From the NCBI GenBank assembly GCA_902801985.1, contig CADCKD010000017.1, forward strand, positions 10,162 to 74,161: a stretch of 64,000 nucleotides of DNA. Direction: 5' to 3'. The translations under genes were made by a program, and so were the position numbers. Shown piece after piece: positions 31,977-35,668 of the stretch; the stretch's first letter is position 1, and every line of letters begins with the position of its first letter. This DNA comes from an uncultured bacterium (GTDB taxonomy: Bacteria > Cyanobacteriota > Vampirovibrionia > Gastranaerophilales > Gastranaerophilaceae). The notes under the pieces were generated by a model. The model was not told where the DNA came from and made no database searches. It was given only the letters and a program-made list of their open reading frames with translations.

Positions 31977-32933
31977 ATGGGCATGTTTGGAGCCGGAAGA
32001 GCATTTAATCTAAGTTTTAGACCTCAACCATTCGGGAATCCCGGATCGATGAGAAGAATACCGATGCCGATGATGGGTAATTATAGTCAAACAACAAATG
32101 TGACTATAAAAAATGGCCCTAGTGGTTTTTGGGGCTTTATGGGCGGCTTATTTGGCGGTCTAACCGGAAACGTCGGTATGGGAGGACTATTCGGTGGGTT
32201 TGGTATGCCAGGAATGATGGGCGGTGCCCCTTGCTTTATGGGCATGAACACCGGCATAGGCAGCGGCGTATACGGAATGCTAAACGGATCACAGCAAAAT
32301 GGTCCTTTAAGCGAAAGTCAACAAATTGGTAACCTTAAAGAACTTTTTAAAGGCTTTGGGTACACCGGTGTAATTGGCAATGGAGACGGAACCTTTACAA
32401 TCTTTGGAGGAGATAAAGGCCCCAAAACAATGACATATAAAGAAGCAGTGAAATTTGCAGAAACATTGGGACCAAAAGCACAAGGAACAGATCCAACTGG
32501 CAAAAAAGATAACCCTAATACGAAAAAAGATGATCCTGAATTAAAATCGAAACAAGATGAATGGATTAAAAAGAATCCGAACCTTGAATTAACAAGACTA
32601 GAAAATGGCACTGCACAAGCTAAGAATGGTGATATCTACGAATGGAAAGATAATGCGTATGTTAAAAAACAGACACAAGCCACAAGCACCACTACTACTA
32701 CCAGTGCAGATGAAGCGAAATACGATTATTCAGTACCTAAAGGTAAGTCGATAGAATATATTGCGAGAGAAGTACTTAAAAAACAAGGAAAAACAAATCC
32801 TACTAAACAAGAAATAGCTGATACCCAAAAACAAATTATAGAAGATAATAAGAGTGCAGTCCATGGAAAAGAAGATAATCCATATTTCTATGCAGATGCA
32901 AAAATTAAAGTCAGAGCAGATATAAGCCAATAG
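31977..32933 (+). CDS. Gly/Met-rich family protein, paralog A (318 aa)
   Basis: Shared module MMGNYSQTTNVTIKNGPSGFWGFMGGLFGGLTGNVGMGGLFGGFGMPGMMGG, then GDGTFTIF...MTYKEA, then YEWKDNAYV. Poly-Thr linker. LysM-like tail YSVPKGKSIEYIAREVL...KIKV. Confidence 0.8.
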   Translation: MGMFGAGRAFNLSFRPQPFGNPGSMRRIPMPMMGNYSQTTNVTIKNGPSGFWGFMGGLFGGLTGNVGMGGLFGGFGMPGMMGGAPCFMGMNTGIGSGVYGMLNGSQQNGPLSESQQIGNLKELFKGFGYTGVIGNGDGTFTIFGGDKGPKTMTYKEAVKFAETLGPKAQGTDPTGKKDNPNTKKDDPELKSKQDEWIKKNPNLELTRLENGTAQAKNGDIYEWKDNAYVKKQTQATSTTTTTSADEAKYDYSVPKGKSIEYIAREVLKKQGKTNPTKQEIADTQKQIIEDNKSAVHGKEDNPYFYADAKIKVRADISQ

Positions 32934-33007
32934 ATAAGTTAAATACGGTATTATAAATTAGAAGACGATACTTAAACAAAATTAGTAAAGATTTTAATAA
33001 TCACACT

Positions 33008-33030
33008 AAATATTAACAAATGTAACAAAA
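33008..33030 (+). promoter_or_regulatory. upstream TAACA/TGTAACA element, copy B
   Basis: aaatattaacaaatgtaacaaaa. Its first 16 nt are identical to 34271-34286. TGTAACAA ends 45 nt before TATAAG at 33073-33078. Confidence 0.5.
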
Positions 33031-33067
33031 ATAAGATTATCTGAAATAACGATAATCTTATTTTTTT
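33031..33067 (+). terminator. terminator after paralog A
   Basis: ataagattatc-9nt-gataatcttat followed by T6. Confidence 0.8.
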
Positions 33068-33107
33068 ATATATATAAGAAGAACTAAAAGAGAGCGAGAG
33101 TGAGTAC

Positions 33108-33830
33108 ATGTCAAATTTTAATTTATTTGCAGCACATAACCAATGGCGGCCGCCTTCAAAAACGGTAGTACCGATGCCTGTGGGCGGAAATTATAGCCAA
33201 ACCACGAACATAACTATCAAAAACGGACCGCAAGGCTTTTGGGGCTTTATGGGAGGTTTGTTTAGCGGTCTGACCGGAAATGTCGGAATTGGTATGCCAA
33301 TGGGCGGACTGTTCGGTGGATTTGGTATGCCAATGGGTATGCCAATGATGGGACCTGCAATGAGCATGAACGGAAGTATCTTCGGCATGGGAGCACCTGC
33401 ACTTATGGGAGGCCCAAGATTTATGGGTGTTGGACTGGGTAATGGTGTTACTCCGCAAGGAGCACCTTCAGCTAATTCAGAAGTAAACACTTTGAGACAA
33501 CTTTTCATCAAACATAATGTCATAGATCATGGAGACGGAACATATACACTGGTTCGCAAAGATGGCCCTGGCGGATCAGAAAAAACAGGTACATTTGAAG
33601 AACTTAAGAATTATCACCCTGAAGTCAAGGCAGAAGGCAAAGAAGACCCTGGGAATAAAAAAGCAGCTGAAGAGCAAAAAGCAAAACAAGACAAATGGAT
33701 AAGTGACCATTCAGACCTTGGGCTGGAACGTAAAGGCGATAAAGTTGTTGGCAAAAACGGGAATGAATACGAATGGAAAGATAATCAGTACGTAGACACA
33801 GGCAAGAAAGCAGGTTCTCCCAGGCAATGA
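33108..33830 (+). CDS. Gly/Met-rich family protein, paralog B (N-terminal 240 aa; reading frame broken)
   Basis: PVGGNYSQTTNITIKNGPQGFWGFMGGLFSGLTGNVGIGMPMGGLFGGFGMPMGMPMMG, then GDGTYTLV...GTFEEL, then YEWKDNQYV. Stops at TGA 33828-33830. Confidence 0.8.
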   Translation: MSNFNLFAAHNQWRPPSKTVVPMPVGGNYSQTTNITIKNGPQGFWGFMGGLFSGLTGNVGIGMPMGGLFGGFGMPMGMPMMGPAMSMNGSIFGMGAPALMGGPRFMGVGLGNGVTPQGAPSANSEVNTLRQLFIKHNVIDHGDGTYTLVRKDGPGGSEKTGTFEELKNYHPEVKAEGKEDPGNKKAAEEQKAKQDKWISDHSDLGLERKGDKVVGKNGNEYEWKDNQYVDTGKKAGSPRQ

Positions 33831-34266
33831 CGGTTCTACAACAAATAAGCCAGAGGGCAACGGTTCTGCCGGTAAACCTGAAAGCAACGGCTCACGTGCA
33901 GCAACCCCAGCCGATAATATAGTTTCTAAAGACGAAATTTCAGGATTAAAAGGTAAACGAACTTCTGTTTACGATACAGGAACAGGAAGAGACTTTAGAC
34001 ACTATAATATCTCTACACTTGGAGAAACAAACAGCGAAGGATACCCTCAAACTATTAAATTAAAAGCAGACAGAGGATGGAATAACCAAACAATGACATT
34101 TGTCGGTATAAAAGACGGTGTTGCAGTATATTCAATCGGTACAGGAAAACTAACTGATGGTAAACATCAAGAATATAGACTTGAAAAAGTCGGAGGAGAA
34201 ATAAAATTCACACAACGTGAAGGCGATATAGGTTACAACAAAGCTAACTGGAATACAGACGGCTAA
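33823..34266 (+). pseudogene. start-less +1-frame continuation of paralog B (147 codons)
   Basis: Open frame GNDGSTTNKPEGNGSAGKPESNGS...EGDIGYNKANWNTDG* has no start codon until a late internal ATG. Deleting one C of CCC 33819-33821 fuses it to 33108-33830. Confidence 0.7.
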
Positions 34267-34270
34267 GTTT

Positions 34271-34300
34271 AAATATTAACAAATGTTACATTAACAAAAA
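34271..34300 (+). promoter_or_regulatory. upstream TAACA/TGTTACA element, copy C
   Basis: aaatattaacaaatgttacattaacaaaaa contains the inverted repeat TAACA-AA-TGTTA. It ends 48 nt before TATAAG at 34339-34344. Confidence 0.5.
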
Positions 34301-34372
34301 TTTTTCTAAATATTTTAGCTCTTTGTGCCGATTAGACATATAAGAATTAAAAAAGAAAGTGAGTGTGAACTA

Positions 34373-35668
34373 ATGTTTTTTGGTATTACCCCTATGGGTG
34401 GCTACAACTATACAGCAAACATATCCATCAATAACGGATCATTCGGTATTGGAGCATTTTTTGGAGGTCTGCTAAGAGGACTAGCCACCAGTTTTGGAAT
34501 TGGAAGCGTATTTGGTTACCGGGCGCCTGTTGTATACTCCGGCAACACTATAAACGGAATGGGCGGGAACGTATATGGAGCATTGAATAACACACACTCC
34601 ATTGCAGATGAACGCTTCTCAAATTTGAAACAAATTTTTCCTAAATATAACGTTCTAAAAAATCCAGATGGAACATTTATCCTCGCGAATAAAGATGGCA
34701 GCGGGATTGAGATGACCGGTTCATATAAAGAGCTAATAGAAAAGGCTGAAGAAGACGGCAAAAAAGCAAAAACACAAGGTTCAGAAAAAGAAAAAACAGA
34801 TACATCTACACCATCAAGTGAAGAACCTGCATCAACTCCAACAAGTAATGAGCCTTCATCTACACCAACAAGTAGTGACCCATCATCTACACCAACAAGT
34901 AGTGATCCGTCGTCTACGCCAACAAGTAGTGATCCGTCATCTACGCCAACAAGTAGTGACCCGTCATCTACACCTACAAGTAGTGATCCGTCGTCTACAC
35001 CAACAAGCGAGGAACCATCATCCTCTGAAAAAAGCCAAAAATCAGAATCTAAAAAACAAAAAACACAAGGTGCGAAAGCCTCAAAAAACAGATCCCCAAA
35101 AGGCTGGTATAGAGCAAATAACATAAACGAAGGTAAGATTGCCGGACTTCTGACTCCCGGTTCGACTCCAATGCAAGTTTTAAATAAGATTTTACAAAGT
35201 AAGATGGATTATTTATCAAATGATGATAGAGTACTGCTTGCAAAAGAGTTGGAACGCAAAAATCCTAGTATATTCTCAAAAGGTAAAGTCAAAGCAGGTG
35301 CAGATCTTGGAAAACTTGACATTCCTACAATAAAATACATAAAAGAAAACTACGTAGAAGACGTAAAAATCACTTCTACCGGAAGAAGACAATATAGCAG
35401 GAAAAAAGCAAATAATACAAAATCAAAAGAACATGGTTCGGCGAATTCAAACCCAAGCACAATTAAAGGCAAGAACGGCTATTATGCATCAAAAGGCAAA
35501 GACGGATGGCACTATTATGACCCAAGCGGAACTGCTATATCCGGAGCGGAATTTAAAAAATACTGCCCTACTATTTATAACACAACAATACAAGGACATG
35601 CACAGGTAAAAAGCCCTGGCACAGTAGGACAATCTAACGGTTATATGGGTTCACATTTAAGAAGATAA
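34373..35668 (+). CDS. Gly-rich family protein, paralog C (431 aa), with PSSTPTSSD repeats and a cell-wall-binding-like repeat
   Basis: MGGYNYTANISINNGSFGIGAFFGGLLRGL, then PDGTFILANKDGSGIEMTGSYKEL. Seven 9-aa repeats. C-terminal NGYYASKGKDGWHYYDPSGTAISG resembles a choline/cell-wall-binding repeat. Start set to ATG 34373; the track's GTG at 34325 lies in the promoter region. Confidence 0.8.
   Translation: MFFGITPMGGYNYTANISINNGSFGIGAFFGGLLRGLATSFGIGSVFGYRAPVVYSGNTINGMGGNVYGALNNTHSIADERFSNLKQIFPKYNVLKNPDGTFILANKDGSGIEMTGSYKELIEKAEEDGKKAKTQGSEKEKTDTSTPSSEEPASTPTSNEPSSTPTSSDPSSTPTSSDPSSTPTSSDPSSTPTSSDPSSTPTSSDPSSTPTSEEPSSSEKSQKSESKKQKTQGAKASKNRSPKGWYRANNINEGKIAGLLTPGSTPMQVLNKILQSKMDYLSNDDRVLLAKELERKNPSIFSKGKVKAGADLGKLDIPTIKYIKENYVEDVKITSTGRRQYSRKKANNTKSKEHGSANSNPSTIKGKNGYYASKGKDGWHYYDPSGTAISGAEFKKYCPTIYNTTIQGHAQVKSPGTVGQSNGYMGSHLRR
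34823..35011 (+). repeat. in-frame 27-nt tandem repeat, about 7 units (E/D-P-S/A-S-T-P-T-S-S/N/E)
   Basis: Units such as gacccatcatctacaccaacaagtagt and gatccgtcgtctacgccaacaagtagt. The central units differ only at synonymous third positions. Confidence 0.9.

Follow-up and report, generated by a model that had tools for sequence, protein, structure and literature searches.

What might a family of bacterial proteins do that keeps one unusual N-terminal module and exchanges the domains that follow it? The question is raised by three tandem genes, here called A, B and C, in a 64,000-nucleotide stretch of DNA (the window) from an uncultured bacterium of the Gastranaerophilaceae (contig CADCKD010000017.1, positions 10,162 to 74,161 of the forward strand). 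The array lies beside uvrA, between two orphan genes designated up216 and s53. The explanation that we tentatively favour is that a cationic N-terminal tail and a glycine-zipper helix of the pattern (GGxx)n anchor and oligomerise each protein in a membrane, where it displays swappable binding domains. Gene B poses a further question, that of a candidate +1 frameshift.

A tandem orphan family with exchangeable ends

The three open reading frames (ORFs) of an earlier reading of this DNA (the original prediction), all on the same strand, were found again, together with every motif quoted for them: the (M/V)GGNYSQTTN(I/V)TIKNGPxGFWGFMGGLF block with its diverged version in C, the Gly/Met/Phe tract, the L..L..DGT(F/Y) domain and YEWKDNxYV. 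The arrays of features are as follows.

31977-32933, + strand: gene A, ORF of 318 amino acids (aa)
31977-32018, + strand: N-terminal peptide of A, MGMFGAGRAFNLSF
32073-32177, + strand: core motif and glycine zipper of A
32178-32303, + strand: Gly/Met/Phe tract of A
32310-32471, + strand: small alpha-beta-beta-beta-alpha domain of A
32532-32669, + strand: YEWKD module of A
32670-32705, + strand: poly-Thr of A
32718-32930, + strand: A-type tail
33108-33830, + strand: gene B in frame 0, ORF of 240 aa ending in TGA, N-terminal peptide MSNFNLF
33183-33287, + strand: core motif of B
33288-33470, + strand: Met-rich tract of B
33471-33617, + strand: small domain of B
33666-33797, + strand: YEWKD module of B
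34373-35668, + strand: gene C, 431 aa from ATG 34373, ORF open from GTG 34325
34373-34498, + strand: diverged core motif of C
34499-34597, + strand: short Gly-rich tract of C
34598-34753, + strand: small domain of C
34802-35041, + strand: PSSTPTSSD linker of C
34803-35007, + strand: 27-nt tandem repeat, 7.6 copies (Tandem Repeats Finder), encoding the Pro/Ser/Thr linker of C
35093-35365, + strand: C-type helical domain
35456-35599, + strand: GYY..G.HYYDPSG hairpin region of C

The proteins align with one another by tblastn (A with B, 1e-37; A with C, 6e-14; B with C, 4e-13), and the motif block alone aligns between A and C at 1e-7 with composition adjustment. A hidden Markov model (HMM) of the family, run over the 64-kb window, matches the A, B and C ORFs only. 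The small domains of A and C, when isolated, give no BLASTP alignment with each other; their similarity shows up in the family HMM and as part of the longer tblastn alignment. By these concordant measures A, B and C are true tandem paralogs, related beyond compositional likeness, as had been argued from their motifs. The likely start of C is ATG 34373, because a Shine-Dalgarno-like GAAAGTGAG lies upstream and orthologs (for example P0114, MFFNIFPMGG) begin MFF(G/N)I; with this start, C has neither the conserved N-terminal peptide nor the cationic tail. The claim that all three proteins share one set of N-terminal elements holds for the core block, but not for the N-terminal peptide, the cationic tail and the Met-richness, which are not shared by C. 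Orthologs of C are 431, 436 and 463 aa long, varying between strains, which suggests that the repeat number in the linker varies as well.

The constant N-module with swapped C-termini, seen originally in three copies, recurs on the scale of the family. End types were counted by seed HMMs over 212 family members, an approach adopted because single-linkage clustering of the tails collapsed to one component, modules being shared; some members combine types. At least four end types recur. The C-type end is the commonest (71 of 212 members), followed by the B-type end (42 of 212), a third type ending in GWTNVT (approximately 30 of 212), the YEWKD module (22 of 212) and the A tail type (7 of 212); the other 52 of 212, fragments included, have none of these. 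A metagenome scan with a seven-sequence alignment of the C-type domain returned eight loci, and the N-module was present in the ORF at all eight.

Replacement of an end can be followed at this locus. In a blastn comparison of 31001-36100 with loci L039 and L040 from related genomes, the poly-Thr and tail of A are replaced by the B-type beta domain, and the remaining locus is collinear at 93-94% identity, so that the exchange is clean within flanks that are approximately 93% identical. The breakpoints fall here:

32685-33007, + strand: cassette breakpoint region

The same combination of A N-module and B-type end is found in proteins P0003 and P0004. Conversely, the C ortholog of L038 (P0010) keeps the C-type end and has a different, full-length N-module. 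The alignments show that closely related strains swap their end domains as cassettes; these interchangeable domains are seen here only within this family.

C and P0005, an intact B ortholog, were modelled with AlphaFold2 from family alignments. The small domain (approximately 55 aa) is predicted as alpha-beta-beta-beta-alpha, with the pattern L..L...Y..V...DGTY.....G.Y.EL and a predicted local distance difference test score (pLDDT) of approximately 90; a charged or Pro/Ser/Thr linker follows it, and then the variable ends. The YEWKD module, taken in the original prediction for part of a charged linker, is more than a linker, being predicted to fold as a helix with hairpins (pLDDT >90). A pLDDT of approximately 90 is also reached by the beta-rich B-type domain and by the helical C-type domain together with its hairpin region. 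In this check, proposed with the original prediction, four domains are thus modelled at approximately 90 and the N-module at low confidence.

Foldseek searches with both models against the PDB, and with the C model against BFVD, gave nothing below an E-value of 0.05, and PDB sequence profiles of the N-module, the A tail, the B-type and C-type domains and up216 gave compositional matches only (a SOD1 loop, an N4 gp52-like Gly-rich segment and designed repeats). The four domains have a confident predicted fold with no match to solved or viral structures. Because no profile or fold match was obtained for any domain, two earlier assignments lose their support. For the LysM-like tail of A, Pfam gives no match at E<=1 (LysM, PF01476), and a PDB search with a profile built from four tail sequences brings up no LysM chain; the cell-wall-binding repeat of C is a single hairpin with no Pfam match (CW_binding_1), for which the TcdB CROP appears in Foldseek at rank 44 with an E-value of 2.9.

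The family is small and confined to one order. A word-index protein search with A returned 61 proteins, all unnamed and all without a Pfam domain, and a protein identical to A (P0001) occurs on 17 contigs. In the census of related genomes that had been suggested, an exhaustive HMM search with the N-module retrieved 168 of 1.84 billion cluster representatives, all <=560 aa, and a pattern scan found 30 loci among 185,579 species genomes. Loci whose record title gives a taxon belong to Gastranaerophilales, Gastranaerophilaceae, Melainabacteria or Cyanobacteria, with the exception of one metagenome-assembled genome titled Clostridium sp.; the loci assigned to this lineage come from assemblies of gut or rumen metagenomes. 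Scans of A, B, the +1 part of B and C against Pfam (E<=1), NCBIfam, PHROGs and PADLOC found nothing meaningful, and Pfam gave low-complexity noise and no real domain in 134 family representatives. The N-module thus lies outside the families covered by Pfam, NCBIfam, PHROG, PADLOC and PDB profile searches, as had been supposed, and nothing relevant was found in the literature on glycine-rich or signature proteins of Gastranaerophilales and Melainabacteria. On these searches A, B and C belong to a genuine small orphan family restricted to Gastranaerophilales (non-photosynthetic gut and rumen Melainabacteria). A phage origin, including an analogue of the Microviridae pilot protein, was considered and dropped, because a pattern scan of IMG/VR and tblastn against 50,697 GenBank phage records found no relatives.

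In at least 20 of the 30 species loci a family gene stands between an up216 homolog and an s53 homolog, adjoining uvrA, with one to three family genes per block. The locus beside uvrA belongs to the core genome, is specific to the lineage and is no mobile element. Further copies outside the uvrA block are surrounded by housekeeping genes, and their context therefore gives no functional clue.

The N-terminal module and its possible roles

Family alignments divide the N-module into four parts. It begins with a peptide MG(I/M)(Y/F)GxG(K/R)AFNL(R/S)(Y/F), or its variants MS(Y/N)FNxF and MVNMYGAGKAFNLR, and continues with a cationic, Pro-rich stretch, the N-terminal tail having a median of 5 Lys/Arg against 1 Asp/Glu. 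The third part is the near-invariant TN(V/I)TIxNGPxGFWGF(M/L)xGLxxGL, a strand-turn leading into the (GGxx)n glycine-zipper hydrophobic segment. The fourth is an uncharged Gly/Met/Phe tract with a median length of 53-57 aa (range 16-106), in which composition (approximately 33% Gly, 13% Met and 11% Phe) is kept and sequence is not. Glycines occupy offsets 1, 4, 7, 8, 11, 12, 15 and 18 (0-based) of SGFWGFMGGLFGGLTGNVG, and in GFWGFMGGLFGGL they stand at i and i+4 on two helix faces. The segment thereby carries the zipper pattern (G/A/S)xxxGxxxG in a hydrophobic helix, the helix being an AlphaFold2 prediction that falls exactly over GFWGFMGGLFGGL. At the same position, divergent members have a clearly hydrophobic stretch of 27-47 residues (for example P0136, P0142 and P0199, with Kyte-Doolittle (KD) values of 1.6-1.8). 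The glycine-zipper reading, one of two functions entertained originally, fits the sequence on both counts.

The earlier view that the proteins carry no Sec or lipoprotein signal also stands, as A, B and C have no lipobox and a conserved region of 45 aa precedes the hydrophobic segment, which begins only at residues 40-50. A canonical signal peptide of this genome, MKKILSTLVGLILSVTLMQSAQA, is found in a neighbouring gene, and the type IV pilin-like N_methyl motif (G|FTLxE) gives a Pfam match in the neighbour at 25704-26423 and none in A, B or C. Since the same genome has canonical Sec and pilin leaders, the family N-terminus is a distinct device. Pfam Gly-zipper_Omp, Gly-zipper_YMGG and Rick_17kDa_Anti match neither A, B and C (hmmscan, E<=1) nor any of the 134 representatives. 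The segment GFWGFMGGLFGGLxGG, with glycines at i and i+4 on two adjacent faces, resembles transmembrane glycine zippers (GxxxGxxxG), such as the VacA N-terminus and channel-forming helices; known small Gly-zipper proteins, however, are lipoproteins or double-helix hairpins, whereas the family has no lipobox and a single segment.

A signal anchor fits this module because the N-terminal tail is net positive, the long uncharged stretch has a two-faced Gly core and divergent members have hydrophobic stretches. The glycine-zipper segment would then be an uncleaved, self-associating membrane anchor with its N-terminal tail in the cytoplasm, and the low-complexity tract a spacer, flexible or cohesive. 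Beyond the cytoplasmic membrane would lie the small domain and the variable ends, binding ligands of the envelope or of the gut environment, and paralog expansion with cassette exchange would diversify what is displayed. Such a layout recalls bitopic envelope proteins (the SPOR proteins FtsN, DamX and DedD, and TonB and TolA), which likewise combine a cationic N-terminal tail, one hydrophobic segment, a low-complexity linker and a small folded C-terminal module, with several paralogs bearing different ends. The likeness is one of layout alone: neither the sequences nor the folds are similar, the segment here is unusually Gly-rich and marginally hydrophobic, and those proteins have no counterpart of the family N-terminal peptide and TNVTIKNGP motif.

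Several observations weigh against membrane anchoring. The KD19 maximum of the segment has a median of 1.05 (range -0.04 to 1.82), below the classical 1.6, and the whole N-module is modelled at a pLDDT of 35-55. The cationic tail is absent from C and from relatives such as P0114, and some divergent members have Lys/Arg on the C-side of the segment, which makes the membrane orientation uncertain. Neither up216 nor s53 has an export signal, which would fit a cytoplasmic complex too. A conserved Cys pair, considered as evidence for an extracytoplasmic location, was dropped, because only one subgroup within the third domain type has it, so that it supplies no general disulfide argument.

The same low hydropathy, under the transmembrane threshold in most members, would suit a secreted or surface protein that assembles into a matrix, its tract driving a cohesive, hydrogel- or amyloid-like layer in the envelope or outside the cell and its end domains decorating that layer. 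AlphaFold2 models the tract as disordered, and its composition outlasts its sequence. The GLFG and GMFG units repeated in this long, uncharged, Gly/Phe-rich tract are reminiscent of nucleoporin GLFG/FG domains, a likeness that is compositional only, since the family is bacterial and Met-rich and its tract is much shorter. We consider a matrix rather unlikely: no export route is evident (Sec, Tat and lipoprotein signals are absent, and the neighbourhood contains no secretion genes), conservation is greatest in the short GFWGF...GGL segment and not in the tract, and the tract shrinks to approximately 16 residues in some members. A missing signal peptide and marginal hydropathy would also be expected of a cytoplasmic scaffold or adaptor working with up216 and s53, in which the tract would bring about condensation or attach peripherally to the membrane and the ends would bind cytoplasmic partners; strict synteny with two orphan genes without export signals is in keeping with this. 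The terminator-like and promoter-like sites of the locus, however, suggest separate transcripts, so that the conserved gene order does not require the products to form a complex. Linkers of tandem Pro/Ser/Thr repeats and fast exchange of cassettes are what one typically sees in exposed proteins that are under pressure to diversify, and transmembrane-like segments are clear in divergent members. A scaffold therefore seems decidedly unlikely.

Tandem arrays, a constant N-terminus with variable C-termini and cassette replacement between near-identical strains are also what polymorphic toxins show (Rhs, CdiA-CT, LXG and MafB), and the original prediction had pointed to such effector families. The N-module would then be a delivery or membrane-insertion device and the C-termini toxic domains directed at competitors; glycine zippers do occur in pore-forming toxins. 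Immunity genes are missing, however. There are no ORFs between A and B, the gap between B and C holds only the out-of-frame remainder of B, and downstream there is a single gene, s53, which comes after the array as a whole; at 65-73% identity across 15 other loci of the order, it does not vary with the end domains. No known trafficking or toxin domain (PAAR, Rhs, VENN and LXG included) was found among the 134 representatives, and no toxin fold is recognisable. The ends fall into a handful of recurrent types seen in this family only, and the core-genome locus adjoins uvrA across the order with no secretion system nearby. The independence of s53 from the end types, together with the lack of small ORFs between the paralogs and of trafficking or toxin domains, argues against a toxin-immunity system, and we regard the effector reading as very improbable. 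Least probable of all is periplasmic buffering or sensing of Cu(I)/Ag(I) by the Met-rich tracts, the second function entertained originally, for which the Met-rich regions of CopA/PcoA, CusF and CopC served as the standard of comparison. The 61-residue tract of B does include 12 Met, with GMPMGMPMMG repeats, and the family median is 13% Met; yet the tract has at most one Met in 17 of 143 members, any His occurs in only six, and C is almost without Met. Methionine is dispensable in those 17 members, and the context is unrelated to copper, with no copper-related Pfam match and no cop or cus genes in the neighbourhood.

Anchoring and display thus remains the explanation that we prefer, and the function of the family is one that we infer. 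Gastranaerophilales are widespread in human and animal guts and largely uncultured, and their cell envelope is poorly understood. The family is a marker of this lineage; being a core gene with array expansion and strain-level diversification, it is a good candidate for exposed proteins that contact the host, phage or neighbouring cells.

A candidate +1 frameshift in gene B

Frame 0 of B stops at TGA 33828-33830, and the sequence encoding the C-terminal domain continues in the +1 frame at 33823-34266. The original prediction gave B a C-terminal domain of approximately 110 aa; the domain exists, but it stands behind a stop codon and not in the reading frame of B, a frameshift that had been missed. 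The relevant features are:

33819-33825, + strand: CCC-AGG-C, candidate +1 site judged from sequence, with the frame-0 stop two codons downstream
33823-34266, + strand: +1 ORF of B, 147 codons
33823-33930, + strand: linker of B in the +1 frame
33931-34263, + strand: B-type beta-rich C-terminal domain

A rare A-site codon and slippage of tRNA-Pro on CCC-N are established +1 mechanisms, and the logic of such sites is that a P-site tRNA able to re-pair in the +1 frame faces a slow A-site codon, as in CUU-AGG-C (PMC2790909, PMC4519876, PMC7577736). CCC-AGG-C combines a slippery P-site codon with a slow A-site codon in the same way: CCC accounts for 3.6% of Pro codons, the rarest, and AGG for 8.3% of Arg codons. 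With the rare AGG still unread in the A site, the peptidyl-tRNA-Pro could shift its pairing from CCC to CCA, and B would yield a 240-aa short form and, by the +1 shift, a 385-aa full form. The predicted trans-frame peptide is KKAGSP-GNDGSTTNKPEGNGSAGK, and AGSPGNDGSTTNKPEGNGSAGKPESNGSR would be diagnostic of it.

The site resembles those of prfB (CUU-UGA-C) and yeast Ty1/ABP140 (CUU-AGG-C) in having a re-pairing P-site tRNA, a slow A-site codon and C as the next base (PMC2790909), with a frame-0 stop close by and a functional domain in the +1 frame. It differs from them in having no clear Shine-Dalgarno-like stimulator upstream. The stop lies two codons past the site and not in it, and B has no known autoregulatory logic.

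Five distinct alleles (the window, L039, L040, L041 and L042/43, from ENA, JGI and Logan assemblies) read GGT TCT CCC AGG CAA TGA, and in all five the 147-codon +1 ORF is open and free of indels. Every retrieved B-like allele ends ...KKAGSPRQ; an intact version, a single 400-aa ORF, is seen only in the more distant L038/P0005. Downstream of the shift site the frameshifted alleles segregate at 15 sites, of which 10 are synonymous in the +1 frame (a CTT/TTA Leu pair among them) as against 3 and 2 in the other frames. Nine of the 15 fall at third positions (p=0.03), and the five non-synonymous changes affect the linker or the penultimate residue, with none in the folded domain. Site conservation thus goes together with a pattern of purifying selection downstream, in a small sample of closely related alleles.

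These observations bear in opposite ways on a programmed shift and on its rival, in which the frameshift is a fixed mutation, the downstream domain is no longer translated and B is a decaying pseudogene or encodes a functional truncated protein of 240 aa. Loss of the domain is a substantial possibility. The frame-0 stop is in place, no start codon precedes the middle of the domain in the +1 frame, and in the same lineage (L039-L043) gene A gained the B-type domain, so that the B copy could be dispensable. The statistical case for selection is slender too, as the alleles are all closely related, the informative sites number only 15 and recombination with intact alleles could mimic purifying selection. 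Against a decaying remnant, on the other hand, speak an open, indel-free frame in five alleles, polymorphism biased to synonymous third positions with the folded part free of amino-acid changes, and a site with the anatomy of a +1 shift, and the occurrence of CCC-AGG-C in every B-like allele found points to long persistence. We give about the same probability to a programmed +1 shift at CCC-AGG-C and to a truncation or pseudogene that became fixed recently.

The frame-0 stop of B is also the lone TGA among the stops of the 39 large ORFs of the window (31 TAA, 7 TAG and 1 TGA), which may be sampling noise or a species-level bias. Reassignment or avoidance of TGA as a lineage trait was considered and is unsupported, because related species use TGA for approximately 12% of stops.

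If genuine, the CCC-AGG-C site would be a rare, directly testable programmed +1 frameshift in a bacterial chromosomal gene, one of very few such recoding events besides prfB. If the proteins are cytoplasmic or B is a mere pseudogene, the locus would be one more orphan family in a metagenome-assembled genome. Orphan families occur in many genome-bin lineages; this one stands out as unusually well defined, part of the core genome and experimentally tractable. A far-reaching combination would be an undescribed membrane device, made of the N-terminal peptide, TNVTIxNGPxGFWGF and a double-faced zipper with its GLFG/Met tract, that forms oligomeric pores or a gel-like envelope layer in gut Melainabacteria and presents strain-swapped new folds, with a genuine programmed +1 frameshift giving two isoforms of B; that all of this holds jointly is unlikely.

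The uvrA locus and neighbouring genes

The chromosome around A, B and C is ordinary, with a GC content of approximately 34%. The gene order is S-adenosylhomocysteine (AdoHcy) hydrolase, a pilin-like gene, TerC, a small secreted protein, uvrA (-), up216 (+), A, B, C, s53 (+), kdtA (-) and folK. The features that flank the array are:

31180-31830, + strand: up216, orphan ORF of 216 aa, Asn/Ser-rich, divergent from uvrA
31852-31886, + strand: terminator-like hairpin 3' of up216, a 14-bp stem followed by a T tract
35811-35972, + strand: s53, orphan gene of 53 aa, 3' of the A-B-C array

The gene up216 invariably precedes the family array, as s53 invariably follows it. The up216 product has no signal peptide and no match in Pfam, NCBIfam, PHROG, PADLOC or a PDB sequence profile search. 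Its 414 homologs, at 50-65% identity, include none with a name and none with a Pfam domain; the two whose source gives a taxon are both from Gastranaerophilaceae. The terminator-like hairpin after up216 suggests that the transcript of A starts separately. The ATG of up216 lies only approximately 37 nt from the start of the divergent uvrA (31142), which places its promoter-like site (31087-31115) inside the uvrA coding region. In s53 the motif SCCY(E/D)HTRE is invariant and there is no hydrophobic segment; scans of Pfam, NCBIfam, PHROG and PADLOC gave no family match, and there was none in the PDB either. An Rfam scan of 31000-36100 gave no match.

Some neighbours are of interest in their own right. 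The type IV pilin-like protein at 25704-26423 (+) contains MKKFAFTLAEVLITL, with the N_methyl motif, and has a Cys-rich C-terminal part. In another species, an extra family copy adjoins a gene for a 597-aa protein (L029, 8578-10371) that combines a pilin N_methyl motif with Peptidase_S74 (endosialidase chaperone), an unusual pairing. An ORF of 1401 aa at 20095-24300 (-) has no Pfam domain at E<=0.01 and keeps its position near the AdoHcy hydrolase gene in distant relatives (1387 aa in L005). The AdoHcy hydrolase itself (window 24424-25692) is intact, with 422 aa, in the window and in L004; in the near-identical L001 it is in two pieces (341 and 66 aa, at 2448-3716), probably through an assembly error or a strain-specific mutation.

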